The notes under the pieces are model-generated. The model was given only the letters and a program-made list of their open reading frames with translations. It made no database searches and was not told the DNA's origin. Positions 8,670-48,139 of a stretch of 64,000 nt of DNA are shown piece by piece; position 1 is the stretch's first letter; each line of letters opens with the position of its first letter. The translations under genes and the position numbers were made by a program. Origin of the DNA: Squalus acanthias (Eukaryota); contig JASTWF010000033.1 of the NCBI GenBank assembly GCA_030390025.1, positions 5,458,001 through 5,522,000 of the forward strand, written 5' to 3'.

Positions 8670-9240
8670 CAGTGCTCAATGCAGACCCAGTAAATTGCGT
8701 TCAATTCACTAATGCTGCCTTTCAATGGCGGGTCTTCTACCCAGCATTCCCCGCGGGGGAGAATGAGCCGAACCCGGACTACAGGAGCCCAGTGCGCAGG
8801 CGCGGGACCCGCCTGGTTTGGGCATGCGCGGTGCGTGTCATCTCAGAGGATGTTGCCTGTGAATCAGTTCCTGATTAATCCGTGAGAAGCGACAGGACGG
8901 AGCGGACTAATGGACCGGAAAGTGGGCGGGGAGGCTTCATAAACAACTAGTGCAGGCCGCAAACACCGAATAATAATCTGAAGCTCCCGCGTTTGCAGCT
9001 TCGGGGCTTCTCCCGGTCACAGGCTCAGACTAACGGCCGCCATCTTGATTCAGTGAGTAGCAAAGCGCATGCGCGGACATCTTGTGAGCAACAAAGAGTG
9101 GGCGGGGCTTCAGTGTCTGTTCCCAACCGGGTCCTAGTGCCCGGGCGAGTAAAACGTTGACTCAGTTATTTGATTCAGACTCTCCACACTTCGAATTTCT
9201 CACCATCTCTCCTGACGGCGCTGGTAAAAGCAGAGCATAC
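8670..9240 (+). promoter_or_regulatory. CpG-island promoter / first exon region of ZNF-A
   Basis: CpG-rich; NRF1-type TGCGCAGGCGC and GCGCATGCGC (9065), YY1-type GCCGCCATCTT (9036), GC boxes GGGCGGGG; homologous to the other ZNF promoters. Confidence 0.7.
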
Positions 9241-9286
9241 GGTTAACATCCCACACAATTGTAACAGAAGAACACGAGAGCTGGGC

Positions 9287-10340
9287 TCCCCTTGTACAGT
9301 CCCAGGGCTGGAATCCCCATGTACAGTCCCAGGGTTAGAATCCCCATGTACAGTCCCAGGGTTAGAATCCCCATGTACAGTCCCAGGGTTAGAATCCCCA
9401 TGGACAGTCCCAGGGTTAGAATCCCCATGTACAGTCCCAGGGCTGGAATCCCCATGTACAGTCCCTGGGTTAGAATCCCCATGTACAGTCCCAGGGTTAG
9501 AATCCTCATGTACAGTGCCAGGGTTAGAATCCCCATGTACAGTCCCAGGGTTAGAATCCCCATGTACAGTCCCAGGGTTAGAATCCCCATGTACAGTCCC
9601 AGGGTTAGAATCCCCATGTACAGTCCCAGGGTTAGAATCCCCATGTACAGTCCCAGGGTTAGAATCCTCATGTACAGTCCCAGGGTTAGAATCCCCATGT
9701 ACAGTCCCAGGGTTGGAATCCCCATGTACAGTCTCAGGGTTAGAATCCCCATGTACAGTCCCAGGGTTGGAATCCCCATGTACAGTCCCAGGGTTTGAAT
9801 CTCCATGTACAGTCCCAGGGTTGGAATCCCCATGTACAATCCCAGGGTTGGAATCCCCATGTACAATCCCAGGGTTGGAATCCCCATGTACAGTCCCAGG
9901 GTTGGAATCCCCATGTACAGTCCCAGGGTTAGATTCCCCATGTACAGTCCCAGGGTTAGAATCCCCATGTACAGTCCCAGGGTTAGAATCCCCATGTACA
10001 GTCCCAGGGTTAGAATCCCCATGTACAGTCCCAGGGTTGGAATCTCCATGTACAGTCCCAGGGTTGGAATCCCCATGTACAGTCCCAGGGTTAGAATCCC
10101 CGTGTACAGTTCCAGGGCTGGAATCCCCATGTACAGTCCCAGGGTTGGAATCCCCATGTACAGTCCCAGGGTTGGAATCCCCATGTACAGTCCCAGGGTT
10201 GGAATCTCCATGTACAGTCCCAGGGTTGGAATCCCCATGTACAGTCCCAGGATTAGAATCCCCATGTACAGTCCCAGGGCTGGAATCCCCATGTACAGTC
10301 CCTGGGTTAGAATCCCCATGTACAGTCCCAGGATTGGAAC
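9287..10340 (+). repeat. 27-bp minisatellite (about 39 copies) in the presumed intron of ZNF-A
   Basis: Unit TCCCCATGTACAGTCCCAGGGTTAGAA. Confidence 0.96.
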
Positions 10341-10399
10341 CCTCAGCAACACCGAGTGCAGGTCTCAGGCCCCGAGTCAGAGCCGCCGGGCCCGGGGCA

Positions 10400-10560
10400 A
10401 CACCGAGTAGGAACGGCGATATATGCCCAAGTCAGGATAGTGTGTGACTTGGAGGGGAACTGGGAGGTGATGGTGTTCCCATGCACCTGCTGCCCTTGTT
10501 CTTCTAGGTGGTGGAGGGCGCGTGTTTGGGAGGTGCTGTCAAAGTTCTAGTCGAGTTACA
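10400..10560 (-). mobile_element. Non-LTR retrotransposon fragment shared by the ZNF-A and ZNF-C introns
   Basis: Nearly identical to 31442-31600; resembles a common shark LINE segment (recognised from memory, not searched). Confidence 0.45.
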
Positions 10561-10851: not shown

Positions 10852-11699
10852 GCTGTTAGAAGGGGAGGATTTGCAGACGGGAAACTCAAACCAAACATCA
10901 CTTCAAGATCTGACAGAGTCACTCGATTCATCAGGACCTTTGAGCATGGAAGCAGAAAGCACCGTTCAGAGCGGGGAGAAACCGTACACGTGTTCTGTGT
11001 GGACGAGGCTTCAGCCGATTCTCTAGCCTGTCGAGTCACAAGCGCAGTCACACCGAGGAGAGGCCGTTCACCTGCACTGAGTGTGGGAAGCAATTCACTA
11101 ATTCATCCGCGGGGAGAAACCGTACACGTGTTCTGTGTGGACGAGGCTTCAGCCGATTCTCTAGCCTGTCGAGTCACAAGCGCAGTCACACCGAGGAGAG
11201 GCCGTTCACCTGCACTGAGTGTGGGAAGCAATTCACTAATTCATCCGCCCTGCTGAGACACCAGCGAGTTCACACTGACAAGAGACCTTTTAAATGCTTG
11301 AACTGTGGGAAGTGCTATAAAAGTTCCGGGGAACTGACGCGCCATCAACGTGTTCACACTGACGAGAGACCATTCAGGTGCTCTCACTGTGGGACTGGGT
11401 TCAGCCAATCATCTGACTTCACTGTACACCAGCGCACTCACACTGGGGAGAGACCGTTCACCTGCTCCGAGTGTGGGAAGGGATTCACTCGGTCATCCCA
11501 CCTGCTGAGACACCAACTTGTTCATACTGATGAGAGACCTTTTAAATGTTCTGACTGTGAGAAGAGATTTAAAAGAAAAACAGATCTGCTGACACACCAG
11601 CGAGTTCACACTGGGGAGAGGCCGTTCACCTGCTCTGAGTGTGGGAAGGGATTCACTCATTCATCGAACCTGCTGTCACACCAGCGAGTTCACAAGTGA
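10852..11699 (+). pseudogene. ZNF-A: C2H2 zinc-finger gene disrupted by a 2-bp deletion and a 138-bp tandem duplication
   Basis: Acceptor TTTTACAG at 10851; ATG at 10946 ([16 protein letters not shown]); TGTGTGGA versus TGTGTGTGGA in paralogue C shifts the frame; 10971-11108 repeated at 11109-11246; six intact fingers follow with no in-frame ATG; AATAAA near 11845. Confidence 0.85.
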
Positions 11700-13580: not shown

Positions 13581-13590
13581 CGATATCCTG

Positions 13591-15510: not shown

Positions 15511-15810
15511 GTTGAATCCCTTTAACATTTATTGAGAACCCATTGTCTTGTGGGCTCTTGTTTAGAAAGTGATGTCACAATGACCATTCCGTTCCCAAGG
15601 TGATCCTGTCTGTCCGCAGTATTCAGTGGGAAAGGGGATTAAATCACACCGAGGATAATGAGCAGCCACCCACCAGTCTCTGCACTTTATTCTCCAGTGA
15701 TCACCTCACCATCACACAGAAGCTCCTGATATAAACCTCCAGTGTGTGATACTTGGTGCAAGTGATGGTAAAAATGAAACTGTACCTGGACCTGACATCC
15801 CTCTCCACAG

Positions 15811-18800
15811 TCCCAGGACAGGTACAGCACGGGTTAGATACAGAGTAAAGCTCCCTCTGCACTGTCCCATCAAACACTCCCAGGGCAGGTACAGCACGGG
15901 TTAGATACAGAGTAAAGCTCCCTCTACACTGTCCCATCAAACACTCCCAGGGCAGGTGCAGCACGGGTTAGATACAGAGTAAAGCTCCCTCTACACTGTC
16001 CCATCAAACACTCCCAGGGCAGGTACAGCAGGGGTTAGATACGGAGTATAAACTCCCTGTACACTGGCCCATCAAACACTCCCAGGGCAGGTCCAGCACG
16101 GGTTAGATACAGAGTAAAACTCCCCCTACATTATCCCATCAAACACTCCTATGCCACCTACAGCATGGTTTAGATACAGATTAAAGCTCGCTCTATACTG
16201 TCCCATCAAACACTCCTAGGGCAGGTACAGCACGGATTAGATACAGAGTAAAGCTCCCTCTACACTATCCCATCAAACACTCCCCAGGCAGTAACAGCAC
16301 GGGTCAGATACAGAGCAAAACTCCATCGAAACTATCCCATCAAACACTCCCAGGGCAGGTACAGCACGGGTTAGATACAGAGTAAAGCTCCCTCTACACT
16401 GTCCCATCAAACACTCCCAGGGAAGGGACAGCACGGATTAGATACAGAGTAAAGCTCCCTCTGCACTGCCCCATCAAACACTCCCAGGGCAGGTACAGCA
16501 CGGGTTAGATACAGAGTAAAGCTCCCTCTACACTGTCCCATCAAACAATCCCAGGGCAGGTACAGCACGGGTTAGATACAGAGTAAACTCTCTCCACACT
16601 GTCCCATCAAACACTCCCAGGGCAGGTACAGCATGGGTTAGATACAGAGGAAAGCTCCCTCTACACTGTCCAATCAAACACTCCCACGACAGGTACAGCA
16701 CGGGTTAGATACAGAGTAAAGCTCCCTCTACACTGTCCCATCAAACACACCCAGGACAGATACAGCATCGGTTAGATACAGAATAAAGCTCCCTCTACAT
16801 TGTCCCATCAAACTCTCCCAGAGCAGGTACAGCATGGGTTAGATACAGAGTAAAGGTCGCTCTACACTGTCCCATCAAACTCTCCTAGAGCAGGTACAGC
16901 ACTGGTTAGATACAGAGGAAAGCTCCCTTTACACTATCCCATCAAACACTCCCAGGGCAGGTACAGCACGGGTTAGATACAGAGTAAAGCTCGCTCTATA
17001 CTGTCCCATCAAACACTCCTAGGGCGGGTACAGCACGGGTTAGATACAGAGTAAAGCTCCCTCTACACTGTCCCATCAAACACTCCCAGGGCAGGTGCAG
17101 CACGGGTTAGATACAGAGTAAAACTCCCTGTACACTGGCCCATCAAACACTCCCAGGGCAGGTACAGCAGTGGTTAGTTGCAGAGTAAAGCCATCTCGAC
17201 ACTGTCCCATCAAACACTCCCAGGGCAGGTACAGCAGGGGTTAGATACAGAGTAAAACTCCCTGTAAACTGGCCCATCAAACACTCCCAGGGCAGGTCCA
17301 GCACGGGTTAGATACAGAGTAAAACTCCCTCTACATTATCCCATCAAACACTCCTATGGCACGTACAGCATGGTTTAGATACAGATTAAAGCTCCCTTTA
17401 CACTGTCCCATCAAACACTCCCAGGGCAGGTACAGCACGGGTTAGATACAGAGTAAAGCTCCCTCTACACTGTCCCATCAAACACTCCCCGGGCAGATAC
17501 AGCACGGGTTAGATACAGAGTAAAACTCCATCGACACTGTCCCATCAAAAACTCCCAGGGCAGGTACAGCACGGGTTAGATAGAGAGATAAGCTCCCTCT
17601 ACACTATCCCATCAAAAACTCCCAGGGCAGGTACAGCACGGGTTCGATACAGAGTAAAACTCCCTCTACATTATCCCATCAAACAATCCTAGTGCACGTA
17701 CAGCACGGGTTAGATACAGATTAAAGCTCCCTCTACATTGTCCCACCAAACACTCCCAGGGTAGGTACAGCACGGGTTAGATACAGAGTAAAGCTCGCTC
17801 TATACTATCCCATCAAACACTCCTAGGGCAGGTCCAGCACGGGTTAGATACAGATTAAAACTCCATCGACACTATCCCATCAAACACTCCCAGGGCTGGT
17901 ACAGCATAGATTAGATACAGAGTAAAGCTCCCTCCACACTGTCCCATCAAACACTCCCAGGACAGGGACAGCACGGGTTCGATACAGAGTAAAGCTCCCT
18001 CTACACTGTCCCATCAAACACTCCCAGGGCAGGCACAGCACGGGTTAGATACGGAGTAAAGCTCGCTCTATAGTGTCCCAACAAACACTCCCAGGGCAGC
18101 TACAGCACGGGTGAGATACAGAGTAAAGCTCCCTCCACACTCTCCCATGAAACACTCCCAGGGCTGGTACAGCACGGATTAGATACAGAGTAAAGCTCAC
18201 ACTACACTGTCCCATCAAACACTCCCAGGGCAGGGTCAGCACAGGTTAGATACAGAGTAAAACTCCCTGTACACTGGCCCATCAAACACTCCCAGGGCAG
18301 GTACAGCACGGGTTAGATACAGAGTAAAGCTCCCTCTACACTGTCCCATCAAACACTCCCAGGGCAGGTGCAGCACGGGTTAGATACAGAGTAAAACTCC
18401 CTGTACACTGGCCCATCAAACACTCCCAGGGCAGGTACAGCAGTGGTTAGTTACAGAGTAAAGCTCCCTCTGCACTGTCCCATCAAACACTCCCAGGGCA
18501 GGTACAGCAGGGGTTAGATACGGAGTATAAACTCCCTGTACACTGGCCCATCAAACACTCCCAGGGCAGGTACAGCACGGATTAGATACAGAGTAAAGCT
18601 CACTCTACACTGTCCCATCAAGCACTCCCAGGGCAGGTACAGCACGGGTTAGATACAGCGTAAAGCTCCCTCTACACTGTCCCAGCAAACACTCCAGGGC
18701 AGGTACAGCACGGGTTAGATACAGAGTAAAGCTCCATCTACACTGTCCCAGCAAACACTCACGGGGCAGGTACAGCATGGGTTAGATACAGAGTAAAGCT

Positions 18801-21800
18801 CCTTCTGCACTGTCACATCAAACACTCCAGGGCAGGTACAGCACTGGTTAGATACAGAGTAAAGCTCGCTCTTTTCTGTCCCAACAAACACTCACAGGGC
18901 ACATACAGCACGGGTTAGATACAAAGTGAAGCTCCCTCCACAATGTCCCATCAAACACTCCCAGGGCAGGTACAGCAGTGGTTAGTTATAGAGTAAAGCT
19001 CCCTCTACACTGTCCCATCAAACACTCCCAGAGCAGGTACAGCAGGGGTTAGATACAGAGTAAAACTCCCTGTACACTGGCCCATCAAACACTCCCAGGG
19101 TAGGTACAGCACGGGTTAGATACAGAGTAAACCTTCCACTACACTGTCCCATCAAACACTCCCAGGGCAGGTACAGCACGGGTTAGATAGAGAGTTAAGC
19201 TCGCTCTACACTATCCCATCAAAAACTCCCAGTGCAGGTACAGCACGGCTTAGATACAGAGTAAAACTCCCTCTCCATTGTCCCATCAAACACTCCTAGG
19301 GCACGTACAGCATGGTTTAAATACACATTAAAGTTCCCTCTACATTGTCCCACCAAACAGTCCCAGGGTAGGTACAGCACGGGTTAGATACAGAGTAAAG
19401 CTCGCTCTACACTGTCCCATCAAACACTCCTAGGGCAGGTACAGCACGGGTTACGTACAGATTAAACCTCCATCGACACTATCCCATCAAACCCTCCCAG
19501 GGCTGGTACAGCACGGATTAGATACAGAGAAAAGCTCCCTGTACACTGGCCCATCAAACACTCCCAGGACAGGTACAGCAGGGGTTAGTTACAGAGTAAA
19601 GCTCCCTCCACACTGTCCCAGCAAACACTCCCAGGGCAGGTACAGCACGGGTTAGATACAGAGTAAAGTTCCCTCTACATTGTCCCACCAAACACTTCCC
19701 GGGTAGGTACAGCACGGGTTAGATACAGAGTAAAGCTCCCTCGACAGTGTCCCATCAAACACTCCTAGGGCAGGTACAGCACGGTTTAGATACAGAGTTA
19801 AGCTCCCTCTACACTATCCCAACAAAAACGCCCAGGGCAGGTACAGCACAGGTTATATGCAGAGTAATGCTTCCTCTGCATTGTCCCATCAAACACTCCC
19901 AGGACAGGTACAGCACGGGTTAGATACAGAGTAAAGCTCCCTCTACATTGTCCCACCAAAAATTCCCAGGGAAGGTACAGTAAGGTGTTAGATACAGAGT
20001 AAAACTCCATCGACACGATCTCATCAAACACTCCCAGGGCAGGTACAGCACAGGGTAGATACAGAGTAAAACTCGCTGTACACTGGCCCATCAAACACTC
20101 CCAGGACAGGTACAGCACGGGTTAGATACAGAGTAAAGCTCACTCTACACTGTCCCATCAAACACTCCCAGGGCAGGTACAAGCACGGATTAGATGCAGA
20201 GTAAAGCTCCCTTTACAACTGTCCCATCAAACACTCCCAGGGCAGGTACAGCACGGGTAGATCAGAGTAAAGCTCCGTCTACACTGTCCCATCAAACACT
20301 CCCAGGGCAGGTACAGCACGGTTAGATACAGAGTAAAGCTCCCTCTACACTGTCCCATCAAACACTCCCAGGGCATGTACAGCACGGGTTCGATACAGAG
20401 TAAAGCTCCCTCTACACTGTCCCATCAAGCACTCCCAGGGCAGGTACAGCACGGGTTAGATACAGAGTAAAGCTCCCTCTACAATGTCCCATCAAAAACT
20501 CCCAGGGCAGGTACTGCACAGGTTCGATGCAGAGTAAAGCTCCCTCTACACTGTCCCATCAAGCACTCCCAGGGCAGGTACAGCACGGGTTAGATACAGA
20601 GTAAAACTCCATCGACACGATCCCATCAAACACTCCCAGGGCTGGTACAGCACGGATTAGATACAGAGTAAAGCTGCCTCTATACTGTCCCATCAAACAC
20701 TCCTAGGGCAGGTACAGCACGGGTTAGATACAGAGTAAAGCTCCGTCTACACTGTCCCATCAAACACTCCCAGGGCAGGTACAGCATGGGTTAAATACAG
20801 AGCAAAGCTCCTTCTGCACTATCCCATCAAACACTCCTCGGGCAGGTACAGCAGGGGTTAGTTCCAGAGTAAAGCTCCGTCTACACTGTCCCATCAAACA
20901 CTCCCAGGGAAGGTACAGAGCGGGTTACATACAGAGTAAAGCTCCCTTTACACTGTCTCATCAAACGCTCCCAGGGCAGGTACAGCACGGTTTAAATACA
21001 GAGTAAAGGACCCTCTACACTGTCCCATCAAACACTCCCCGGGCAGCTACAGCACGGGTTAGATACAGATTAAAACTCCATCGACACTATCCCATCAAAC
21101 ACTCCCAGGGCTGGTACAGCATAGATTAGATACAGAGTAAAGCTCCCTGTACACTGGCCCATCAAACACTCCCAGGACAGGTTCAGCATGGGTTAGTTAC
21201 AGAGTAAAGCTCCCTCTACACTGTCCCATCAAACACTCCCAGGGCAGGCACAGCACGGGTTAGATACGGAGTAAAGCTCGCTCTATAGTGTCCCATGAAA
21301 CACTCCCAGGGCTGGTACAGCACGGATTAGATACAGAGTAAAGCTCACACTACACTGTCCCATCAAACACACACGGGGCAGGTACAGCACAGGTTAGATA
21401 CAGAGTAAAACTCCCAATACACTGGCCCATCAAACACTCCCAGGACAGGTACAGCACGGGTTAGATACAGAGTAAAGCTCACTCTACACTGTCCCATCAA
21501 ACACTCCCAGGACAGGTACAGCATCGGTTAGATACAGAGTAAAGCTCCCTCCAGACTGTCCCATCAAACACTCCCAGGGCAGGTGCAGCACGGGTTCGAT
21601 ACAGAGTAAAGCTCCCTCTACACTGTCCCAGCAAACACACACGGGGCAGGTACAGCATGGGTAAGATACAGAGTAAAGCTCCCTCTGCACTGTCACATCA
21701 AACACTCCAGGGCAGGTACAGCACGGGTTAGATACAGAGTAAAGCTCCCTCTACACTGTCCCAGCAAACACTCACGGGGCAGGTACAGCATGGGTTAGAT

Positions 21801-22857
21801 ACAGAGTAAAGCTCCTTCTGCATTGTCACATCAAACACTCCAGGGCAGGTACAGCACTGGTTAGATACAGAGTAAAGCTCGCTCTATACTGTCCCAACAA
21901 ACACTCACAGCTCACATACAGCACGGGTTAGATACAAAGTAAAGCACCCTCTGCACTGTCCTGTCAAACATTCCCAGGGCAGGTACAGCACGGGTTAGAT
22001 ACAGAGTAAAGTTCCCCCTACACTGTCCCATCAAACACTCCCAGGGGAGGTACAGCACAGGTTAGATACAGAGTAAAGCTCCCTTTACACTGTCCCATCA
22101 AACACTCTCAGGGCAGGTACAGCACGGGTTAGATACAGAGTAAAGCTCCCTCGACACTGTCCCATCAAACACTCCCAGGGCAGGTACAGCATGGTTTAGA
22201 TACAGAGTAAAGTTCCCTCTACACTGTCCCATCAAACACTCCCAGGGCAGGTACAGCACGGGTTTGATACAGAGTAAAGTTCCCTTTACACTGTCCCATC
22301 AAACACTGCCAGGGCAGATACAGCACGGGTTAGATACAGAGTAAAGCACCCTCTACACTGTCCCATCAAACACTCCCAGGGCAGTTACAGCACGGGTTAA
22401 ATACAGAGTAAAGCACCCTCTACACTGTCCCATCCAGCACTCGCATGGCAGGTACAGCACGGTTTAGATACAGAGTAAAGCTCCCTCTACACTGTCCCTT
22501 CAAACATTCCCAGGGCAGGTACAGCACGGGTTAGATACAGAGTCAAGCTCCCTCTACACTGTCCCATCAAACACTCCCAGGGCAGGTACAGCATGGGTTA
22601 GATACAGAGTAAAGCTCCCTCTACACTGTCCCATCCAACACTCGCATGGCAGGTACAGCACGTGTTAGATACAGAGTAAAGCTCCCTCTACACTGTCCCA
22701 TCAAACACTCCCAGGGCAGGTACAGCACGTGTTAGATACAGAGTAAAGCTCCCTCTACACTGTCCCATCAAACACTCCCAGGGCAGGTACAGCACAGGTT
22801 AGATACAGAGTAATGTTCCCTCTACACTGTCCCATCAAACACTCCCAGGGCAGGTAC
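15811..22857 (-). repeat. 67-bp satellite array 2 (about 105 monomers, inverted)
   Basis: Reverse complement of the array-1 unit. Confidence 0.97.
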
Positions 22858-23242
22858 ACGGACATGTAACCGATACCTTCGCTTGATACCAAGGCTAGGA
22901 GAGTCACTCTGGAAGGTTTGGGGAGCTGGGGCTTGTGCACGAGAGTAACTAAAGGTGTGAGAACTGAAATAATCTTGATTTAGAAAAGAGAAAAGGGCCC
23001 AAAATGGAGCAGTCATTAACAGGACATCAATTAGTCTCCTCTTATCTTGGAGAAATCAAGGATTCGACCCACGGTGTGTTCGAAACAAAGTTAATCTATC
23101 GGACATATCAAAATATTAAACTCCAGCCCAGTTAGAGGGGTTATTAACATCAGCAGAAACAAACTCCAACCGTCAGAATGAACATGGTTCAGTCCTGGAT
23201 GAGATTAACAGCAGCAAAAACAGCAGAATCTAACCCCTGCTG

Positions 23243-23749
23243 TCACTTGTGAACTCGCTGGTGTCTCAGCAGGGTGGATGACTGAATGAATCCCTTCCCA
23301 CACAGGGAGCAGGTGAACGGCCACTCCCCAGTGTGAACTCGCTGGTGTGTCAGCAGGGTGGATGACAGAATGAACCCCTTCCCACACTCAGGGCAGGTGA
23401 ACGGCCTCTCCCCAGTGTGAACTCGCTGGTGTGTCAGAAGATCCCTTGTGCTTTTAAAGCTCTTCTCACACTCAGAACATTTAAAAGGTCTCTTATCAGT
23501 GTGAACGCGTTGGTGTGAAGTGAGGCTGGAGGAGTTAGTGAATCCCTTCCCACACACAGAGCAGGTGAACGGCCTCTCCCCAGTGTGAAGTCGCTCGTGT
23601 GTCAGCAGGTGGGATGACCGAGCGAATCTGTTCCCACACACAGAGCAGGTGAACAGTCTCTCCCCAGTGTGACTGCGTTGATGAGCTTCCAGCTGGGATG
23701 GGTAATTGAATCCCTGCCCACAGTCCCCACATTTCCACGGTTTCTCCGT
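23243..23749 (-). CDS. ZNF-B: six C2H2 fingers, open frame with no ATG; candidate ACG start at 23749 (or a pseudogene)
   Basis: (T)[26 protein letters not shown] plus five more fingers with TGERPF-type linkers to ...HQRVHK*; context CGCACC-ACG-G; acceptor at 24113-24114; upstream fingers carry stops and a frameshift. Confidence 0.6.
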
Positions 23750-24304
23750 GGTGCGGGTGTCCTTGTGTCTCTCCAGGTTGGACGATCAGTTGAAGCCTCG
23801 TCACACACAGAACACGTGTACGGTTTCTCCCCGCTGTGAATGGTGCGATGTTTTTTCAGACTGTGTAACTGGTTAAAGCTCTTTCCACAGTCAGTGCACT
23901 GGAACACTCTCACTCGGGTGTGTGTGTCTCGGTGCTTTTCCAGTCACACTGATGTTTGAAATCTTTTCCCACAGACAGAACAGACAAACATTTCTCCTTC
24001 TACATTCAAAGTCCGATGATACTCAGGTCCTGATGAATGGAGTGACTCCGTCAGATCTTGAAATTATGTTTGGTTTGAGTTTCTGGTCTGTAAATCCTCC
24101 CCTTCTCACAGCCTGTAAAAGGAGTTTACAAAAGACATCACTAAGTAGAGGATAGAAATTCAGAACAGACAATTCTAGTTTCTATGGAACATTCTTTCCT
24201 CTCTTGTTCCCCCAAAGCCGTAAATCTCCATCCCACACACTCTCCCTCCTCCCTGTGCTGAAATCCAAACCCATCGCACCATCTCCAACACATTTTCCTT
24301 CTTG

Positions 24305-28075: not shown

Positions 28076-28122
28076 ATCCCACACAATTGTAACAGAAGAG
28101 CCCCAGAGCTGGGCCCCCCTTG

Positions 28123-31979: not shown

Positions 31980-33017
31980 ATGGAAGCAGAAAGCACCGTT
32001 CAGAGCGGGGAGAAACCGTACACGTGTTCTGTGTGTGGACGAGGCTTCAGCCGATCCTCTGGCCTGTTGAGACACAAGCGCAGTCACACTGGGGAGAAAC
32101 CGTGTAAATGTGGGGACTGTGGGAAGCGATTCAACTACCCGTGTGAGCTGGAAACTCAGCGACGAGTTCACACTGGGGAGAGGCCGTTCACCTGCTCCGA
32201 CTGTGGGAAGGGATTCACTGATTCATCCCACCTGCTGCAGCACCAGCGAGTTCACACTGGGGAGAGGCCGTTCACCTGCTCCGAGTGTGGGAAGGGATTC
32301 ACTACTTCATCCTGCCTGCTGAGACACCAGCGAGTTCACACTGGGGAGCGACCGTTCACCTGCTCTGAGTGTGGGAAGGGATTCACTCGGTCATCCACCC
32401 TGCAGACACACCAGCGAGTTCACACCGGGGAGAGGCCGTTCACCTGCTCTGAGTGTGGGAAGGGATTCACTCAGTCATCCAACCTGCTGACACACCAGCG
32501 AGTTCACACTGGGGAGAGGCCGTTCACCTGCTCCATGTGTGGGAAGGGATTCACTGATTCATCCAACCTGCTGAGACACCAGCGAGTTCACACTGGGGAG
32601 AGGCCGTTCACCTGCTCGGAGTGTGGGAAGGGATTCACGTGTTCATCCGACCTGCTGACACACCAGCGAGTTCACACTGGGGAGAGACCGTTCACCTGCT
32701 CTGAGTGTGGGAAGGGATTCACTCGGTCATCCCACCTGCTGACACACCAGCGAGTTCACACTGGGGAGAGACCGTTCACCTGCTCTGAGTGTGGGAAGGG
32801 ATTCACTGATTCATCCAGCCTGCTGATACACCAGCGAGTTCACACTGGGGAGAGGCCGTTCACCTGCTCCGAGTGTGGGAAGGGATTCACTCGGTCATCC
32901 AGCCTGCTGAGACACCAGCGAGTTCACACTGGAGAGAGACCATACACCTGCTCCGTGTGTGGGAAGGGATTCACGTATTCATCCCACCTGCTGAAACACC
33001 AGCGAATTCACAAGTGA
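31980..33017 (+). CDS. ZNF-C: intact tandem C2H2 zinc-finger protein, 345 aa, 12 fingers (finger 2 has H to Q), no effector domain
   Basis: Acceptor TTTTGCAG at 31885; AACATGG Kozak ATG at 31980; repeated [28 protein letters not shown]; AATAAA near 33161. Confidence 0.9.
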
Positions 33018-35228: not shown

Positions 35229-35229
35229 C

Positions 35230-35380
35230 TCAGGGGCCCAGTGCGCAGGCGCAGGGACGGATGATTGACAGTCCCACAGGGTGTGTGTGCCAAGCATGCG
35301 CGGTGCGGACCGAGCGGGAGTGGGCGGGGCCATGTGACGCATGCGCAGTGTCAGCGGCGGCTGGTGCGCGGGGGCTTGTG
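35230..35380 (+). promoter_or_regulatory. CpG-rich promoter-like patch of fossil ZNF-E
   Basis: GCCCAGTGCGCAGGCGC, GCATGCGCGG, GTGGGCGGGG and ACGCATGCGCA, as in the other ZNF promoters. Confidence 0.55.
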
Positions 35381-35539
35381 GGTATTTCAACCAACCTGGG
35401 CAGCAGCTGGGCCTGTAAATCAGCTTCACTGCCCATGGGCTGGGAAAGGGAGACATGAGACAGCTTTCTCCCTCTTACCCATTCTACACTCCGTTTACAG
35501 GGTGTTAGTCCTGGAGCGTTTACAGACAGGAAGCTCAAG

Positions 35540-36276
35540 GGCCGTGCAACGAGACCTGGGTGTCCTTGTGCACCAGTCGCTGAAGGTAAGCATGCAGGTG
35601 CAGCAGGCGGTTCAGAAGGCATATGGTATGTTGGCCTTCATAGCGAGAGGATTCGAGTACAGGAGCAAGGAGGCCTTGCTGCAGTTGTACAGGGCCTTGG
35701 TGAGACCACACCTTGAGTATTGTGTGCAGTTTTGGTTGCCTTATCTGAGGAAGGACGTTCTTGCCATGGAGGGAGTGCAGCGAAGATTCACCAGACTGAT
35801 ACCTGGGATGGCAGGAATGACGTATGAGAGAGATTGGGTCGATTGGGCTTGTATTCGCTAGAGTTTAGAAGAATGAGAGGGGATCTCATTGAAACTTATA
35901 AAAATCTTACAGGACAGGACAAACTAGATGCAGGAAGGATGTTCCCGATGGCAGGGGAGTCCAGAACCAGGGGTCACAGTCTAAGGATAAGGGGCAAGCC
36001 ATTTAGGACAGAGATGAGGAGGAATTTCTTCACCCAGAGAGTGGTGAACCTGTGGAATTCTCTACCACAGAAGGCAGTTGAGGCCAATTCATTAAATATA
36101 TTCAAGAAGGAGTTAGATATATTTCTTAAGGCTAAAGGGATCAAGGGATATGGGGAGAAAGCAGGGACAGGGTACTGAATTTGGATGATCAGCCATGATC
36201 TCATTAAATGGCGGAGCAGGCTCGAGGGGCCGAATGGCCTACTCCTGCTCCTATCTTCTATGTTTCTATGTTTTTT
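35540..36276 (+). mobile_element. CR1 LINE 5'-truncated copy with complete 3' tail
   Basis: QRDLGVLVHQSLK...LYRALVRPHLEYCVQFW...RRMRGDLIETYK; tail TTCTATGTTTCTATG; same subfamily as 14811-15510. Confidence 0.93.
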
Positions 36277-36318
36277 AAGCCAAACATCAGGTCAAGATCT
36301 GACAGAGTTGCTCGATTG

Positions 36319-39140: not shown

Positions 39141-39519
39141 TAGAATCATAGGGGGAAAAATTAGGTCGCGCCCCGTTTGGGGCGCAAATATCGTCTGGAC
39201 GCAAATATTAGCGCCTGGCGCTAATTATCGCCACTGACTGGAAACTTCACTTTTACCGCCCTGGGAGGTGAGTGGAGCGCTAAATCAGGCGCTGCACACC
39301 TGTCTTAAGGCGCAAAGGCCGAGCAGTGAGGCGTTAACTCAGCGCGCGAGCGCAGCGCAGGTGCTGCCAGTTAGCGAGGGAACACAGACACACTGGCGCC
39401 AGCCAGTTCTTAAAGCGGGGGGGGGGGGGGGGGGGCAACTTGCTTCCCAGCCACACCCTGCTCATTGCAGCCTTGAATCTCGGCCTGGAGAGACCTGTGA
39501 ATCCATTTTGCTGCCAAGG

Positions 39520-41331
39520 ATGGAGAGGGTGAGAGAACGAGCTCAGCGCTTCACTGAGCGGGCCTTGGATGCTCTGGTTGGCACGGTGGAGCGCAGAAGA
39601 TGTATACTCTTCCCTGAGAGTGGCAGGAGGCCTTTGCCACGCGAGTACAGAAGAGTGTGGAGGGAGGTGGCTCAGAGCGTCTCCTCCAGGAGCATGGTGC
39701 CCAGGACCCATGTTCAATGCCGCAAAAAGTTCAACGACCTCACTCGGGTCGTCAAGGTGAGTGGCTTTTTCTCAATACCTCTCCATCCCTCCATCTCAAC
39801 CTCACTCTATGGCCAGAGGGTCTTAAAACCCCAATGCACAACACTCATCCAACACCTATGGCCCTTTCATGAAACACACACACACATTCCACACTTTGCA
39901 TACAGTAAGGGCTATGGGAGGCACATCAGGCAAGACCATGGCTGTATATTGTAAAGGCTATTCACCTATGGGAGGCACATCAGGCAAGACCATGGCTGTA
40001 TATTTACTCAGATGCTGTCCTTTTTCTTGCAGGCCAAGCTGGCGCATAATAGGAGACAGCAGCAACGGACAGGTGGAGGGCGGCCTCAGCTGCAACCCCT
40101 CAGCGATCTTGAGGAGCGCGTCCACAGGATTGTGGCAAGCCGGGTGATCGGTCCCGTCGCCACTGGAGACGCCGACCCCGTTCTGGACAGCAATGGTAAG
40201 GTCATCACCTTTTTGTCCTCTGTCCTTCCACTTGTCCCTCACAACACCAGCCTTTGACACTTTCAATCCAACTTGCTAACTCGCTGCACTTATTCCTCCC
40301 TTACTGCCACCCTGTCCTCACGCTAAAGCCACTCTTGTACCTCCCTGCTTTCAGATGGTGATTCACCAGCTGAGGAGACGGGCCCTGAAGCTGCCAGTGG
40401 GAGTGAAGCTGCAGCCGAGGAGGAAGAGGAAGCCGGAGCATCAGTGCCACCCTCTCCCGAGGAAGCCCATGCCCACACTGGGAACACGCCTTCCCTGGAG
40501 GGGAGCAGGGGGGAAGGGTCTGATGAGGGTGAAGCTCCAGGACCCAGCGGGCTGCAGCAACGCCATGGGGGTAGGGAAGAACGGGGTCCTTCTCCCCGGA
40601 GGGAGAGTATGCCAGAGACTCCTACTGCAATGGACGCAGAGGAGGAGCGGCTGATCGCAGAAATGAACACCCAGGCGGTGGGCATGCACACTGAGCTCAT
40701 GGGTGCAGTGGGAAGGGTGCCCGAATGCATTGAGTCACTGGCAAGGAGTGTGGAGCACTTCGCTGTAGCACAGGCGGATGCCACACTAATGCTTAATGCT
40801 GCAATTCAGTCACTGACTGCCGTGATCCCATCTCTGACTGCTCTCATGCAGACTCAGATTGAGGCCACGCGAGCACTGACTGCTGCCAACCTCGATGGTT
40901 CGTTCACATGTCCCCGGGGCTCTCACCGCGCCGCAGCAGGCGAGCAATCTGTGCTCCAGCAGATTGCTCCGGATGCTGAAGTACTGCCCCGTGGGAGTGC
41001 CAGTGTGTTGAGCGAGCAGGGAGTTGCTGTCCTCTCTCACGATGACAGCATTCCTGCTGACAACACTGTCACTTCTCCACTGCACTTGCCACCGGCTGTA
41101 GGACAGACTGCTGCCGCCCATGCAGAGTTGGTGCAGTCTGCAGCCGGGCCCTCCAGGCCCAGAACTGGTCGAGGCCGTCCTTCAGGGGCATCTGCAGTGT
41201 CAGGGTCTGACGATCAGCAGCCTTCCACCAGCCTTGCTGCAGCCACTGAGGTCCCATTACGGAGGAGCAGTAGGGTTAGAAGGGGGGAAGTGCGCAAGGG
41301 AAGGAGATCACCCTCGAAGGGCAAAAAGTAG
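39520..41331 (+). CDS. Harbinger Myb/SANT-like DNA-binding protein; exons 39520-39756, 40033-40195, 40355-41331 (458 aa)
   Basis: RFTERALDALV...VWREVAQSV...RTHVQCRKKFNDL trihelix/Myb pattern; GT-AG introns of phase 0 and 1 keep the frame; NRRQQQRTGGG motif; basic C-terminus. Confidence 0.85.
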
Positions 41332-41666
41332 GAGGTGTGACAAAATGCTGGTCATTTTTTTATTAAAGGCCGAGGTTCGTGGTCCAACTTTTGTCTAGTG
41401 TTTTGGACATTATCTCCAGGTTGTGAGAACCAGTTATGTTAATGACTGTTATTTTGTGTTTATTTCTATGAGTTTGTCATGAGGAAATGACACACACAGA
41501 GTTTGTAAAATAAATAAGTTTTTGTATTCAAAATAAATAAGTTTTTGTATTCAAAATATACATGTTTGGTTTTTGGAATCATTGGTGCCTTGGCTGGCTT
41601 AGGGGTTGTGTGCTGGGTTCATTGATGTTGTTAGCAATGGCAGAAGCCATTTCCACAGCAGGGGCC

Positions 41667-42836
41667 CTAGAAGCGGCTTGCTATCAGCCGTTGACGGACG
41701 GCCCTTGCAGTTTCACCATTGTGGGCCGCCCTCTCGCCTTGGTGCTGCTGATGATCATCCTCCTCGTCCTCTTCCTCCACTTCCTCCTCCTCCTCTGGTG
41801 GTGCTCCAAGGCCTGGTGGCATTGGCTGGGTCCTGACGATTGCCATGTTATGCAACATGCAGCACACAACTACGAAGTTGGATACTCGCTCAGGCGAGTA
41901 CTGCAGGGCTCCTCCAGAATGGTCGAGACAGCGGAACTGTTGCTTCAGCACGCCGATTGTGCGCTCAATGATGTTCCTGGTAGCTTGATGGCTCTCATTG
42001 TACCGCAGCTCAGCAGGGGTGTTGGGCGTACGGAGCGGTGTCATCAGCCAGGTGCTCAATGGATACCCCTTGTCCCCGAGAAGCCAACCAACTGGCTGAT
42101 GCGGTGCCTCGAAAAGTTCTGCCACAGTAGTCTGGCGCAGGATGAAAGCATCGTGGCAGCTGCCAGGATAGTGGGCATTGACAGCGAGTATCAGCTGTCT
42201 GTGGTCACAGACCAACTGAACATTCAAGGAATGGAACCCCTTTCTGTTCCGGAATTCCTCGGCATTCTCATGTGGAGCACGCAAAGCCACATGCATGCAG
42301 TCAATGGCGCCCTGCACCATGGGGAAGCCCGCTATCCTCGCAAAGCCCAGAGCGCGGTCAAGCTGCTTGTCTGGGGTCATGGGGAAAGAGATGAACTCTC
42401 GTCTCCTTTTAAAGAGGGCATTTGTGACCTGCCGGATGCAGCAATGCACCACGAACTGGGAGATATTGGCGAGGTCCCCAGCAGCAGCTTGAAATGAACC
42501 AGTAGCATAGAAGTTGAGAGCCACTGTGACCTTCACTGCCACCGACAGAGACGTCCTGGACCTCAGTTGAGGCTGCAGATCTGGCTGCAGCAGGTGGCAG
42601 AGCTCAGTGACCACCTCCTTGCTGAATCGCAGCCTTCGCAAACACAGCTCCTCAGACATATGAATGTAGGAGAGCTGTTCACGATATACCCTGGGAGGGT
42701 AAGCTCTCCTGTACATACGCCTGTTGGCCCTCCTCCGTCTGGCCATCATTGCCACTCTCTCTCTGCGTCTCTGTGTCCTCCGATTCAGCTGGAGCAGGAC
42801 GACGCCCCCAATCCGTGCAGCCCCCATAGTCTTCAT
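41667..42836 (-). CDS. Harbinger DDE transposase (HARBI1-like, DDE_Tnp_4 family), 389 aa
   Basis: LRFSKE, ALNFYATGSFQ, GAIDCMHV (D), NRKGFHSLNVQLVCD, YPGSCHD, LLGDKGYP (D), RNIIERTIGVLK (E), CCMLHN; no stops. Confidence 0.93.
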   Translation of the reverse strand: MKTMGAARIGGVVLLQLNRRTQRRRERVAMMARRRRANRRMYRRAYPPRVYREQLSYIHMSEELCLRRLRFSKEVVTELCHLLQPDLQPQLRSRTSLSVAVKVTVALNFYATGSFQAAAGDLANISQFVVHCCIRQVTNALFKRRREFISFPMTPDKQLDRALGFARIAGFPMVQGAIDCMHVALRAPHENAEEFRNRKGFHSLNVQLVCDHRQLILAVNAHYPGSCHDAFILRQTTVAELFEAPHQPVGWLLGDKGYPLSTWLMTPLRTPNTPAELRYNESHQATRNIIERTIGVLKQQFRCLDHSGGALQYSPERVSNFVVVCCMLHNMAIVRTQPMPPGLGAPPEEEEEVEEEDEEDDHQQHQGERAAHNGETARAVRQRLIASRF

Positions 42837-43090
42837 ATAAATTGACCCTTAGTGTTAGGGGGGATTAAATATGTGGGGTTATGGGGATAGGATGGGATAT
42901 GTTAGGGGGAATTAAATACGTGGGGTTACGGGGGTAGGGTGGGATATGTGTACTGTGGGGATTAAAGCAGGGACAGGGTACTGGATTTGGATGATCAGCC
43001 ATGATCGTATTGAATGGCGGAGCAGGCTCGACGGGCCGAATGGCCTACTCCTGCTCCTAGATTCTATGTTTCTATGTTTCTATGTTTCTC
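42837..43090 (+). mobile_element. 5'-truncated HE1-like SINE with CR1-derived tail, inserted in the Harbinger
   Basis: TAAATTGACCCTTAGTG...AAATACGTGGGGTTACGGG body, then AAAGCAGGGACAGGGTACTG...GGCCGAATGGCCTACTCCTGCTCC and (TTCTATGT)n tail matching 36158-36270. Confidence 0.6.
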
Positions 43091-43600
43091 TTTGCAAGCA
43101 AAGTTATGAAGGACAGCAACCAAAGTAGCAGCGAAGTTAGGATCAGTAGGCAAAACTACCTCACAAAGCGTTGACTCAATGCAGAAGTCTCTCTTTCTCT
43201 CTCTCCGAATCTCTCTCTCTCTCTCAGAACGAGTGGTGCAAAAATGTCAACCACAGAAAAAGACAGGAAGAGGACCCCTTTAAATAGCGCCCCCCCCCCA
43301 GCCCCACAGCGTTTGATAGCATTCCAGTCTTCCGGTCGTTGGATGCGCCAGGCGGTAAGGCAGGGGGCGCCACTCAATTTCCGCTCCGGGGCGCCACAAG
43401 GGCGTTGCACCATGGAATGACGTCACAATCTGCGCGCGCAGGTGGTCGCAGCGGTAAGGTTTAGCGCCGCTGCACAATGTCTAGTTAAGTTCCCGAGCGG
43501 CGCAAACATCGCTGCGCCCGGGCGCTAGCGGCTTTGCGCTCCATTAGCGCCCTCTTAAGGCGCTAACGGGAGGCGCAACCAACTGAATTTTTCCCCCATA

Positions 43601-44574: not shown

Positions 44575-45060
44575 GAGACCAGCGCGCAGGCGCAGCGCCG
44601 CCTGTTGGGGAGGAGGAATCCAGCGCGCAGGCGCAGCGCCGCCTGTTGGGGGAGGAATCCAGCGCGCAGGCGCAGCGCAGCCTGTGGGGGAGGAATCCAG
44701 CGCGCAGGCGCAGCGCCGCCTGTGGGTGGAGCATGCGCAGTGTCACTGTGATCAAGGCCGGTCGAGAACTCGAGGCGGTGAGAAACGGAGAAGAGGTTTT
44801 TGCGCCGATTACGTATCAGCGGGGCGCAGAGAGGTAACACACACGGCGGGTGGGCTTCATAAACATCTAGTGTGGGCCGTAAGCCCCGAATGAGAACCTA
44901 CAGGTTCCGCGTTTGCAGCTCCGGGGCTTTTTCCCCGGGAACAGGCCCAGATTAACGGTAGCCATCTTTGTAAAGGACAATGGGGGTCTTTATTTGTCGC
45001 CATCTTGATTATCGCGGCCATCTTTGTAAAGGGGACAATAGTGGGCGGGGCTTCACGGTC
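44575..45060 (+). promoter_or_regulatory. CpG-island promoter of ZNF-D with tandem NRF1-like motifs
   Basis: Four copies of CCAGCGCGCAGGCGCAGCGC; GAGCATGCGCA; three GCCATCTT (YY1); GTGGGCGGGG. Confidence 0.72.
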
Positions 45061-45579
45061 CCAGTCAGTGATCTGAACCCAGCCTGAGTCAGCACCTTCA
45101 GGGGAGGAGAGGGAGGGGAACCAGTGAGTGTAGAACTGAACCCAGCCAGAGTCAGCACCTTCAGGGGAGGAGAGGGAGGGGAACCAGTCAGTGTAGAACT
45201 GAACCCAGCCAGAGTCAGCACCTTCAGGGGAGGAGAGGGAGGGGAACCAGTGAGTGAACTGAACCCAGCCAGAGTCAGCACCTTCAGGGGAGGAGAGGGA
45301 GGGGAACCAGTGAGTGTAGAACTGAACCCAGCCAGAGTCAGCACCTTCAGGGGAGGAGAACCAGTGAGTGTAGAACTGAACCCAGCCAGAGTCAGCACCT
45401 TCAGGGGAGGAGAGGGAGGGGAACCAGTGATTGTAGAACTGAACCCAGCCAGAGTCAGCACCTTCAGGGAGGAGAGGGAGGGGAACCAGTGAGTGTAGAA
45501 CTGAACCCAGCCAGAGTCAGCACCTTCAGGGGAGGAGAGGGAGGGGAACCAGTGAGTGTAGAACTGAACCCAGCCAGAG
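45061..45579 (+). repeat. 63-bp minisatellite (about 8 copies) in the 5' region of ZNF-D
   Basis: Same unit as 24305-25215, opposite strand. Confidence 0.95.
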
Positions 45580-46154
45580 TTGGTGGTGAAAACAGTGAGA
45601 TTAGGAAAAACTGTCTTGAGACGTGCGATTTGTTTGGATTTTAGCACAGGGAGGAGGGAGAATGTGTGGGACGGGGATTTACAGCTTTGGGGGAACAAGA
45701 GAGGAAATAATGTTCCATAGAAACTAGAATTGTCTGTTCTGAATTTCTGTCCTGTACTTACAGTGATGAGTTTTGTAAACTATTTTTACAGGGTATTAGA
45801 AGGGGAGGATTTGCAGACAGGAATCTCGAACTAAACATCACGTCAAGATCTGACGGAGTCACTCGATTCATCAGGACCTGAATATCATCGGCCTTTGAAT
45901 GTGGAAGGAGAAATGTTTGTCTGTTTTGTCTGTGGGAAAAGATTTCAAGCATCAGTGTGACTGAAAAAGCACCGAGACACACACACCCGAGTGAGAGTGT
46001 TCCAGTGCACTGACTGTGGAAAGAGCTTTAACCAGTTCCACAGCCTGAAAAAACATCGCACCATTCACAGCGGGGAGAAACCGTACACGTGTTCTGTGTG
46101 TGACGAGGCTTCAACTGATCGTCCAACCTGGAGAGACACGAGGACACCCGCACC

Positions 46155-46829
46155 ACGGAGAAACCAGGGAAATGTGCGGACTTTGGGAAGGGATTCAATT
46201 CCCCATCTGAGCTGGAAATGCATCATCGCACTCACATCGGGGAGAGGCCGTTCACCTGCTTTGAATGTGGGAAGGGATTCACTCAGTCATACAATCTGCT
46301 GACACACCAGCAAATTCACACTGGGGAGAGGCCGTTCATCTGCTCCGAGTGTGGGAAGCGATTCACTCGGTCATTCAACCTGCGGACACACCAGCGAGTT
46401 CACACTGGGGAGAGACCGTTCACCTGCTCCGGGTGTGGGAAGGGATTCACTCGGTCATCCGACCTGCTGAGACACCAGCGGGTTCACACTGGGGAGAGGC
46501 CGTTCACATGCTCCATGTGTGGGAAGGGATTCACTTGTTCATCTGAGGTTGTAACTCACCAGCGAGTTCACACTGGGGAGAGACCGTTCACCTGCTCCGT
46601 TTGTGGGAAGGGATTCACTCAGTCATCCCACCTGCTGAAACACCAGCGAGTTCACACTGGGGAGAGACCGTTCACCTGCTCTGAGTGTGGGAAGGGATTC
46701 ATTCAGTCATCCCACCTGCTGAAACACCAGCGAGTTCACTCTGGGGAGACACCGTTCACCTGCTCTGAGTGTGGGAAGGGATTCATTCAGTCATCCGACC
46801 TGCTGACACACCAGCGAGTTCACAAGTGA
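46155..46829 (+). CDS. ZNF-D: tandem C2H2 protein, 7 intact fingers from ATG 46218; upstream in-frame ACG at 46155 adds one degenerate finger
   Basis: Acceptor TTTTTACAG at 45791; TGERPF linkers; ends HQRVHK*; fossil fingers upstream. Confidence 0.75.
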
Positions 46830-48139
46830 TGGCAGGGGTTGGATTCTGCTGTTATTGCTGCTGTTAATCACATCCAGGACTGAACCATGTTCATTCTGAC
46901 AGTTGGGGTTTATTTCTGCTGATGTTAATAACCCTTATAACTGGGCTGGTGTTTAATATTTTGATATTTCAAATAACACAGAGGGTTGATATTTGATGTC
47001 TCCAAGATAAGAGGAGACTAATTGATGTCCTGTTACCGACTGCTCCATTTTTGGGCCTATTCTCCTTTCTAACTCGAGATTATTTCAGTTCTCGTACCTT
47101 CGGTTACTCTCATGGACAAGTCCCAGCTCCCCATACCTTCCAGAGTGCCTCTCCTAGCCTTGGTATCCAGGGAAGGTCTCGGTAACACGCCCGGGATCAC
47201 TAAACACAAAACCCAGTCTGTTAATCACTTTCAGCTACTGGACTTAGCGTGTGTCCCACAGCATCTCTCTCACCTTCGATGTGTGAATAGAGCATCACGC
47301 CTGCAAACCTGCTTTCAATTTCAATTTGAATCCACTCAGCAAGTGTATTTAAAAAAATACGTACAAGTAAACAGATCACATCAAATAATTGGCAAAGGTT
47401 TAGAGTCAACAAGATGAACAAGTGAACACATCACGGCCCAATACCCCAGCTCCATATTCACAGGAGAAAGTCTGTTATCTAACTCCTCGAGTGGACAGAA
47501 TAGAGAAAGATCCCAACTCTAAGAACATCTAGAATCTGTTGTAAATATCTTTCAAATCCTGACTGGTCCAATCTGTCGGTTTCCTTTCAATTGAAGTGAA
47601 TGGAAGATGAGAGGGGTGTTGGCATATGGACCTCGGTTAATTCAGCTTCTGAAAGGTGTTCATGTTTAGTTCATTCGATATCGGGGAAAATGTGGTCGGT
47701 ATCATTAGAGAGAGAGAGAGATTTCACTGAGCAACAGCTGGTGTTTGCAACCAACTGGCCTTGGATATTTTCATCATAGAATGTTTCGATCAGAAATATG
47801 ATGTTGGGATAAGGAAAGTCTGGAGACTAGTGGTTTGTGCTGCCCCAGGAAGGCCACAGTGTTTTTACCTGCTTCTGACGTTGATGTGTGTTGAAGAAAA
47901 TGCAGACTTGTGTCTCTGGACTGTGCAGTAGCCAGAGACGACCATATTAGGCAATGCCAGCTCCAGTTTGATAAGAGGTTGATGGCAGAACAAGAGATCC
48001 AGCAGTTTTAAGAATTTATCTCCCGTTATCTGCAGACATCGAATGTCGCAGCGTGCTGACAAAATTGGACTTAAGACTTTAACCTATTGGGTTAAATTAT
48101 TGGGATCGATTGTTATAGAATTGAATTGTTATAGAATGG

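Follow-up and report, generated by a model that had tools for sequence, protein, structure and literature searches.

We analyzed a 64-kb window of the Squalus acanthias genome (contig JASTWF010000033.1, positions 5,458,001 to 5,522,000; positions below count from the first letter of the window). An initial annotation had described 8670..47190 as a cluster of tandem C2H2 zinc finger (ZNF) genes. A six-frame motif scan of the window found 36 C2H2 matches. Two of these are chance matches, and the other 34 lie in four units: A, C, and D on the plus strand and B on the minus strand. These matches number 6 in A, 6 + 2 in B, 11 in C, and 7 + 2 in D. The units carry their tandem fingers, with HTGE(R/K)P linkers, in a single 3' exon. 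Self-comparison showed a common layout: a CpG-rich promoter module, an intron filled with minisatellites, a conserved acceptor, a leader of about 85 nt that every unit shares, the array of fingers, and a short 3' untranslated region (UTR). Two more units, E and F, are fossils that lack fingers, and only C, one of the six, is clearly intact. This is a real, ordinary-looking birth-and-death cluster of an under-described family of finger-only shark ZNFs, and one gene has a strong PRDM9-like signature. With a probability of roughly 60%, we consider the cluster to be a local sample, for the most part in decay, of a very large family of tandem genes for finger-only proteins that occurs across sharks.

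The motif scan, the reading of open reading frames (ORFs), and self-comparison agree with the initial annotation that there are at least six related units (C intact, B and D open but unusual, A frameshifted, and two fossils) and that they share a promoter module, although its own E and F may not be the same remnants as ours. Its description of a single finger exon holds for the coding sequence, but there is a separate 5' exon. In the modelled mRNA of C, the first ATG is the one at 31980, in a strong context, and a polyA-like AATAAA lies about 143 nt past the stop. The product of C would be a sequence-specific DNA-binding protein with fingers only, expressed from an open CpG-island promoter.

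We searched for effector domains in all 145 sense-strand stop-free frames of at least 28 amino acids upstream of units A–D (frames mostly in masked repeats were left out; Pfam, E ≤ 0.1). None of the 145 matched KRAB, SCAN, BTB, zf-AD, or SET, as the annotation had claimed for the first three, and the PR/SET, KRAB, and SSXRD domains of PRDM9 had no Pfam match upstream of any unit. The sole match above a curated cut-off was a piece of a CR1 reverse transcriptase. Because Pfam would be blind to a new, short module, we also examined contigs from four public runs of relatives for splicing. These were aligned, at 80% likeness, to the promoter-to-leader stretch of D, so the results are for the D type. 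Three contigs from two of the three probable-RNA runs (one in X1 and two in X3) have a GT..AG joint that links 44833|44834, inside the CpG island, to 45791|45792. Among the 15 of 69 joints listed, this joint was not found in the other probable-RNA run (X6) or in a DNA-sized run (X19). The exon-1 region of D contains no ATG. In the kind of transcript check that the annotation had suggested, here on probable-RNA contigs of relatives, an ATG-free exon is joined straight to the finger exon, with no effector exon, but for the D type only. C and a promoter at the right edge of the window retain the homologous donor, which is altered in A and B (Table 1). The splice in relatives supports the absence of an effector exon in the D type, and we infer the same for C.

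The leader comes in two types. In type 1 (B and D), it contains two to three dead fingers, a 15-codon upstream ORF that ends in TGA, a second TGA, a shared 1-bp deletion, and an ACG at a TTEKP linker. The dead fingers and an in-frame TGA have been kept, and translation would have to restart downstream. In type 2 (A and C), the first two fingers seem to have been deleted, and translation would begin at a strong ATG just before the array. Both types were found in the relatives: X19 has the letters of the type-2 junction as a joint, and in X1 and X6 they occur as loose ends. The first leader TGA (45958-60) is absent from the variants of the relatives' contigs (among the 40 of 312 listed), while 45949 and 45964 on either side vary at about 99%, which suggests that this TGA is family-wide. 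In the four runs, 6, 18, 14, and 30 contigs still have the G that is missing from B and D. The leader TGA is unlikely to be recoded, given the other stops and the frameshift in the same leader of B and D. The vestigial leader may be what remains of a longer N-terminus in an ancestor.

Unit D could yield a protein of 203 amino acids with 7 fingers from ATG 46218, which lies behind an upstream stop. In both B and D, an ACG in a strong Kozak-like context stands where a start would be expected (23749-23747 on the minus strand in B, 46155-46157 on the plus strand in D), and non-AUG initiation there is possible. Shark models often begin with MEKPWKC. Unit B is probably a pseudogene. Unit A is dead: after its ATG at 10946, 2 bp were lost from a TG run, a stop follows at 11026, and there is no Met in the finger frame. 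Unit A also contains a perfect 138-bp duplication (10971-11248). The broken frame of A could conceivably be due to an assembly error.

The array of C is nearly homogeneous apart from the residues that would contact DNA. Outside the contact codons, fingers 2-11 of C are 96% identical at the nucleotide level. As minimum counts, these fingers show 16 nonsynonymous changes over 7.2 contact sites, 6 over 56 other sites, and 9 synonymous changes over 20.8 sites (nominal p = 6e-5 for the contact-site excess; p = 0.007 was also obtained for these counts). Over the 28 positions of a finger, the share of amino-acid diversity at positions -1, 3, and 6 is 0.69 in C (leaving out its first two, atypical fingers), versus 0.25 in A, 0.26 in B, and 0.32 in D. 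Away from the contacts, all four arrays have a deficit of amino-acid change (p from 0.04 to 7e-6). These results support selection on the putative DNA-contact residues of C. C also resembles PRDM9 (PMC5519329) in that both have a minisatellite-like, homogenised array; the contact diversity of human PRDM9 is 0.687, but we have no genome-wide rank for the 0.69 of C. A PRDM9-type array with diversity concentrated at contacts was found in C only. Unlike PRDM9, which is one gene and has KRAB, SSXRD, and SET, the shark family is multi-copy and lacks such domains.

The promoters appear to be in an open state. Their ratio of observed to expected CpG is 0.90-0.99, versus 0.38 for the window and 0.29 for the satellite and CR1 sequences. 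Between A and the right-edge copy, divergence in the promoter is the same at CpG and at other sites (12% vs. 12%), while in the flanks CpG sites diverge about 8 times faster (22% vs. 2.6%). The high CpG ratio, together with the lack of excess CpG divergence in the promoters while the flanks show one, suggests that the promoters are CpG islands that are unmethylated in the germline. This weakens the annotation's view that the genes sit in heterochromatin, though the view is still plausible. Still, H3K9me3 (trimethylation of lysine 9 of histone H3), which has been noted for KRAB- and FiNZ-ZNF regions (PMC10547256), may be compatible with unmethylated promoters if it lies over the gene bodies.

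Among 1.84 billion representative proteins, the leader had four matches at E ≤ 0.001. All are from sharks, and they share the EGEDL...DSSGP leader and the finger types. Leader-sharing proteins in the database come only from Pristiophorus japonicus, Heterodontus francisci, and Cetorhinus maximus. Automatic RefSeq/UniRef shark models ("zinc finger protein 239-like", "850-like", "664-like", and uncharacterised LOCs) have the same leader (61-72% identity) and the same finger types; their names rest on automatic similarity alone. One of the database relatives (P0001) starts at the same Met as C. Word-based protein searches, which are nearly blind, gave no candidates for the leader of C, one match for the B region, and, for the leader of P0002 among longer proteins, 7 candidates of which none passed. 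A scan for the leader motif had no matches in metagenome and viral contigs, and an Atlas search with C returned generic C2H2 clusters only. ZNF ORFs with at least five fingers (all ZNFs, not this family alone) number 475-3,586 in seven chondrichthyan assemblies, with 3,586 in catshark (PMC10547256 supplement). The main text of that paper does not mention sharks under the terms searched. In the open-licence literature (subscription papers and some supplements were outside the search), we found no paper that describes the anatomy of this shark family. What is already known, then, is that the family has been annotated automatically in three sharks, that shark ZNF ORFs have been counted genome-wide, and that KRAB-independent ZNF repertoires against transposable elements (TEs) are in print for metazoans generally (PMC10547256).

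The closest anatomy in print is that of the ZF271-like/APEZ genes of the pea aphid and the milkweed bug (PMC6444547). These are likewise finger-only, with no KRAB or other domain, and occur in tandem clusters of a few genes, with pseudogenes and rapid lineage-specific turnover. The shark cluster has no domain besides the fingers (as seen in the D-type splice of relatives and expected for C), and it too is tandem, with pseudogenes and turnover. However, the insect genes are of independent origin, while the shark family is from a jawed vertebrate and has a fixed two-exon layout, a vestigial leader of dead fingers, and ORF counts of several hundred to thousands. The FiNZ-ZNFs of cyprinids (PMC10547256), like the shark genes, are KRAB-independent, clustered tandem ZNFs of a fish lineage with one finger exon and positive selection at contact residues. 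Unlike the shark genes, whose observed 5' exon is non-coding, they have a conserved coding 5' exon (for the 28-amino-acid, acidic FiNZ) and knock-down evidence for TE repression. FiNZ is described as cyprinid-specific (PMC10547256). In the shark, the exon-1 region of D lacks an ATG and the database relatives have no common N-terminus. The units lack the N-terminal domain that would place them among the SCAN-, BTB-, or ZAD-ZNFs.

KRAB-ZNF clusters share with the shark cluster their clustering, birth and death, a single finger exon, and diversification of contact residues. KRAB-ZNF genes also have CpG-island promoters. They differ by their upstream KRAB-A exon, which is absent among the 145 upstream ORFs, and TRIM28 recruitment with H3K9me3 at targets characterizes KRAB-ZNFs. 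These have been placed in coelacanths, lungfish, and tetrapods (bioRxiv 10.1101/2025.11.27.690821; PMC11603059).

We propose that each gene would be transcribed from a CpG-island promoter with a short non-coding exon 1, followed by one intron of minisatellite and TE debris and one coding exon. Intact copies like C, with a conserved scaffold and diversified base-contact residues, would be sequence-specific DNA binders. Because they have no effector domain, they would most likely act by occupancy: by blocking the access of other factors, by fixing nucleosomes, or by recruiting partners via the fingers. Occupancy or nucleosome anchoring has been reported for SCAN-ZNFs that do not recruit TRIM28 (bioRxiv 10.1101/2025.03.03.638093). 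As to what is bound, repeats or TEs seem, by analogy only, the likeliest targets, at a little under even odds; such targets have been predicted for several non-tetrapod ZNF sets (PMC10547256). We also put forward a broader and rather doubtful scenario: effector-free ZNFs, in their hundreds to thousands, might serve sharks as a repertoire for the surveillance of repeats. In this scenario, the N-terminal effector would have been lost long ago, with the dead leader as its scar; the 84-bp finger unit would be a PRDM9-like pool that is shuffled among paralogues; and young TEs or satellites would be controlled independently of KRAB and TRIM28, through occupancy or through cofactors that the fingers recruit.

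The genomes of cartilaginous fishes are rich in TEs and contain many tandem ZNF ORFs, yet these fishes lie outside the KRAB-ZNF radiation. If their main family is truly finger-only, then it offers a natural way to ask whether sequence recognition suffices for repeat control when no repressor domain is present, and it would bear on what state preceded or paralleled KRAB/TRIM28. The defined anatomy (a non-coding exon 1, two start types, and one strongly diversified intact gene) makes the question testable. The window itself contributes this anatomy and, for one gene, a signal of selection, but no function.

Several observations weigh against a family of expressed, finger-only genes that recognize repeats. 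The expression support is a spliced form of the D type in relatives and not of C itself. The runs X1, X3, and X6 were taken to be RNA by guess, and all four runs are from other organisms (the best word share was 0.49). The contigs with the joint show only 24-26 letters on the exon-1 side, so a further exon upstream is possible. The leader frame of C is open from the acceptor to the ATG (32 codons), so a coding, in-frame 5' exon could formally extend C, and two automatic models of relatives (P0006 and P0004) have extensions of 53 and 135 residues. As for selection, the change counts in C are per-column minima on repeats that are not independent. The contact-site excess was significant in only one of the four arrays (p = 0.08 for B, 0.26 for D, and 0.56 for A), and none of the three database relatives with at least four fingers has a high contact share (0.19-0.22). 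Given these values and those of A, B, and D, C is not typical. Finally, with a crude recognition code, none of the 36 pairings of the four arrays with nine local repeats reached p < 0.05, but this method is too weak to count either way (it recovers 5% of human motifs; PMC10547256).

The cluster might instead reflect largely neutral amplification by segmental duplication and unequal crossing-over, with nearly all copies being pseudogenes or decaying, and with the contact diversity of C being an inherited vocabulary that conversion has reshuffled. That only one of six units is clearly intact fits this explanation, as does the synonymous distance between the fingers of C and D (0.10), which is similar to the distances within C (0.12) or within D (0.09) and is compatible with a shared pool. 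Also, without selection it would not be improbable for the frames of B and D to have stayed open: in simulations, they survived with probability 0.61-0.69 without indels or CpG bias and 0.03-0.08 with both, so we rejected these frames as proof of selection since the two units split. However, C has kept 345 open codons that include 16 CGA codons (simulated neutral survival of 0.001-0.44), non-contact change is depleted in four arrays, the promoters are still CpG islands, and spliced forms appear in the relatives' probable-RNA contigs. Overall, we consider largely neutral amplification unlikely.

Another explanation is that the genes do have an effector, namely a short, unrecognised N-terminal module (as FiNZ is in cyprinids) in a 5' exon that is spliced in frame onto the type-2 leader. 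The leader has the same phase in all four units, and its frame is open from the acceptor in A as well as in C. FiNZ itself has just 28 amino acids and is unlike any known domain (PMC10547256), so a module of this kind would escape Pfam. And in an Atlas search with the N-terminus of P0004, nothing reached 0.9, and a KRAB cluster was the second match at 0.79, below that bar. However, the observed joint links the ATG-free promoter exon directly to the acceptor, and the type-1 leader contains stops. Furthermore, in the database relatives from three sharks, the shared leader is preceded by 3, 5, 8, 53, 135, or 883 residues, and the three longest of these N-termini are mutually unrelated. Between promoter and acceptor, A and C have in common only a minisatellite and a 445-bp repeat-like piece and no candidate coding exon. 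A hidden module is improbable. It seems even less probable that the proteins are ordinary regulators of host genes, or bind RNA or protein, and that they expanded for reasons unrelated to repeats, like the ZAD-ZNFs of flies or the ZF271-like genes of hemipterans. There is precedent: neither the ZF271-like expansion in Hemiptera (PMC6444547) nor dipteran ZNFs (PMC10547256) track repeat content or retroelements, respectively, and the recognition code, weak as it is, predicted no match to local repeats. But the PRDM9-like homogenisation and contact-site diversification of C point to targets that change quickly, and the counts of ZNFs and retroelements are correlated across metazoans (PMC10547256).

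Table 1. Features of the 64-kb window.
Feature	Position	Strand	Details
67-bp satellite array 1	1..4863	+	TRF (Tandem Repeats Finder), 72.6 copies; cut by window edge
Upstream block	5347..8443	+	Duplicated at 60187-63436 (self-BLAST 92-95%); piece of a long interspersed element (LINE), 39-bp and 30-bp minisatellites, triplicated ~350-bp unit
Remnant 3' UTR of lost minus-strand family member	8443..8676	-	Abuts promoter A; 75-78% identical to 3' regions of B and D
Unit A, promoter and exon-1 module	8655..9286	+	CpG island; GCATGCGC, GC-box, GCCATCTT motifs; donor homologous to D's reads CT at ~8907
Unit A, 27-bp minisatellite in intron	9287..10339	+	Same unit at 28124-28809 in C
Unit A, finger exon, pseudogene	10852..11699	+	ATG 10946, frameshift, duplication; 6 canonical fingers stranded out of frame
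67-bp satellite array 2	15807..22858	-	TRF, 105.3 copies; sole large array inside 8670..47190
Unit B, finger exon (type 1)	23243..24112	-	Dead-finger leader with stops, 1-bp deletion, ACG 23749-23747, 6 fingers, no in-frame ATG
Unit B, 63-bp minisatellite in intron	24305..25206	-	Same unit at 45073-45580 in D
Unit B, promoter	25207..25620	-	Head-to-head with C; donor homologous to D's reads AT
Unit C, promoter and exon-1 module	27480..28114	+	Donor homologous to D's at 27734|27735, GT kept (placed by alignment, not observed spliced)
Fossil E, inside C intron	29075..30429	-	Acceptor and ~31 nt of exon; intron split by ~430-bp LINE 3' piece; 92-bp minisatellite; no fingers
Unit C, finger exon (type 2), intact	31886..33017	+	ATG 31980 to TGA 33017, 345 amino acids; 11 canonical fingers and 1 degenerate finger without its first His
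Fossil F	35230..36317	+	Promoter-like CpG-rich stretch, acceptor 35500|35501, exon start split by CR1 3' fragment (35541-36271); no fingers
Near-complete Harbinger transposon between F and D	39151..43597	.	Myb/SANT ORF (+), DDE_Tnp_4 transposase 41667-42848 (-), short terminal inverted repeats, ATA target duplication
Unit D, promoter and short ATG-free exon 1	44690..45072	+	Donor 44833|44834; GT..AG joint to 45791|45792 in relatives' contigs
Unit D, finger exon (type 1)	45792..46829	+	Upstream ORF ATG 45913 to TGA 45960; dead fingers; 1-bp deletion near 46101; ACG 46155; ATG 46218
67-bp satellite array 3	49627..60186	+	TRF, 157.6 copies
Right-edge promoter of A-like paralogue	63646..64000	+	Segmental duplicate, period ~55 kb; preceded by same 3'-UTR remnant (63461-63667)

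The history of the cluster is one of duplication and loss. The annotation's additional promoter at the right edge is real: 60187-64000 repeats 5347-9009 at 92-95%, promoter included, so the next A-like unit begins at the edge of the window. Its rapid birth and death also stands, given one clearly intact unit of six, this segmental duplicate, and the flanks of A and C, which are about 97% identical around different arrays. B and C are arranged head-to-head, and a minus-strand 3'-UTR remnant abuts both the A and the right-edge promoter, which suggests that a B-like partner was deleted beside each. Fossil E is split by a LINE 3' piece with a target duplication of about 20 bp, and a narrower reading places the fossil at 29075-29705 on the minus strand. 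In fossil F, 36282-36317 was found by BLAST (E = 7e-8), and visual inspection identified its promoter and 5' piece. Further short stretches left from the leader and intron of the family at 44426-44472 (+) and 48857-48915 (-) imply that more than two dead copies contributed to this block.

In recent duplicates, the promoter and exon-1 core (8680-8980, 27505-27808, and 63671-63998) has diverged faster than the flanks, by a factor of about 3.5. The excess lies at non-CpG sites and affects each of the three copies. A and C differ at 69 of 605 promoter sites but at 43 of 1335 sites in the flanks; for A and the right-edge copy, these numbers are 38 of 331 and 68 of 2032. CpG decay was rejected as the cause, since non-CpG sites carry the excess. 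We read this divergence as the probable result of ectopic exchange or conversion of family-wide modules from older paralogues; alternatively, promoters could be local hotspots of mutation or recombination. Copies would be born by segmental or tandem duplication, most would die, and, given the mosaic identity, they would swap promoters and finger units by ectopic recombination or conversion. We also considered that C might be an A chassis with a D-like 3' end. This was rejected: the first ~95 nt past the stop differ by 8-9 in five of the six pairs of units (13 for A and B). A 38-bp stretch of the 3' UTR of C (33109-33146) is inverted relative to A, B, and D.

The three 67-bp arrays have one identical consensus. 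Blocks of 5-10 kb of satellite are present, as the annotation had stated, but its claim that they partition the genes was overstated. One of the three arrays lies inside the interval that it covered, of which this satellite makes up 18%, and five of the six units (B, E, C, F, and D) fall in one 27-kb block between two arrays. Within that block, the units are separated only by short minisatellites, LINE pieces, and the Harbinger element. Most likely, the arrays are passengers and substrates for duplication rather than a functional part.

The transposase frame of the Harbinger element is open (393 codons). The element was inserted in the simple-repeat tail of a LINE, and a small LINE 3' piece lies at about 42956-43090. 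Two CR1 3' fragments, at 14929-15510 (-) and 35618-36198 (+), are 96% identical, which indicates a young LINE subfamily; the second interrupts fossil F. Rfam had no matches in the window. In the introns of B and D, the 63-bp minisatellite unit has a motif resembling an acceptor and, about 22 nt away, one resembling a donor, and could give micro-exons; none was seen among the 15 of 69 joints listed. The spacer between the B and C promoters (25620-27480) is AT-rich and unique. It contains TTCG-rich repeats of 81 bp and 24 bp, its end is rich in CpG, and it has no Pfam match above cut-off. In the promoter of A, GCATGCGC, the GC-box, and GCCATCTT are presumably sites for NRF1, Sp1, and YY1. At 8140-8270 and 63150-63280, a short frame with cysteines lies beside CCCTAA-like repeats; its only Pfam match is to zf-BED at E = 0.05, and we take it to resemble the N-terminus of a Polinton/Maverick polymerase.

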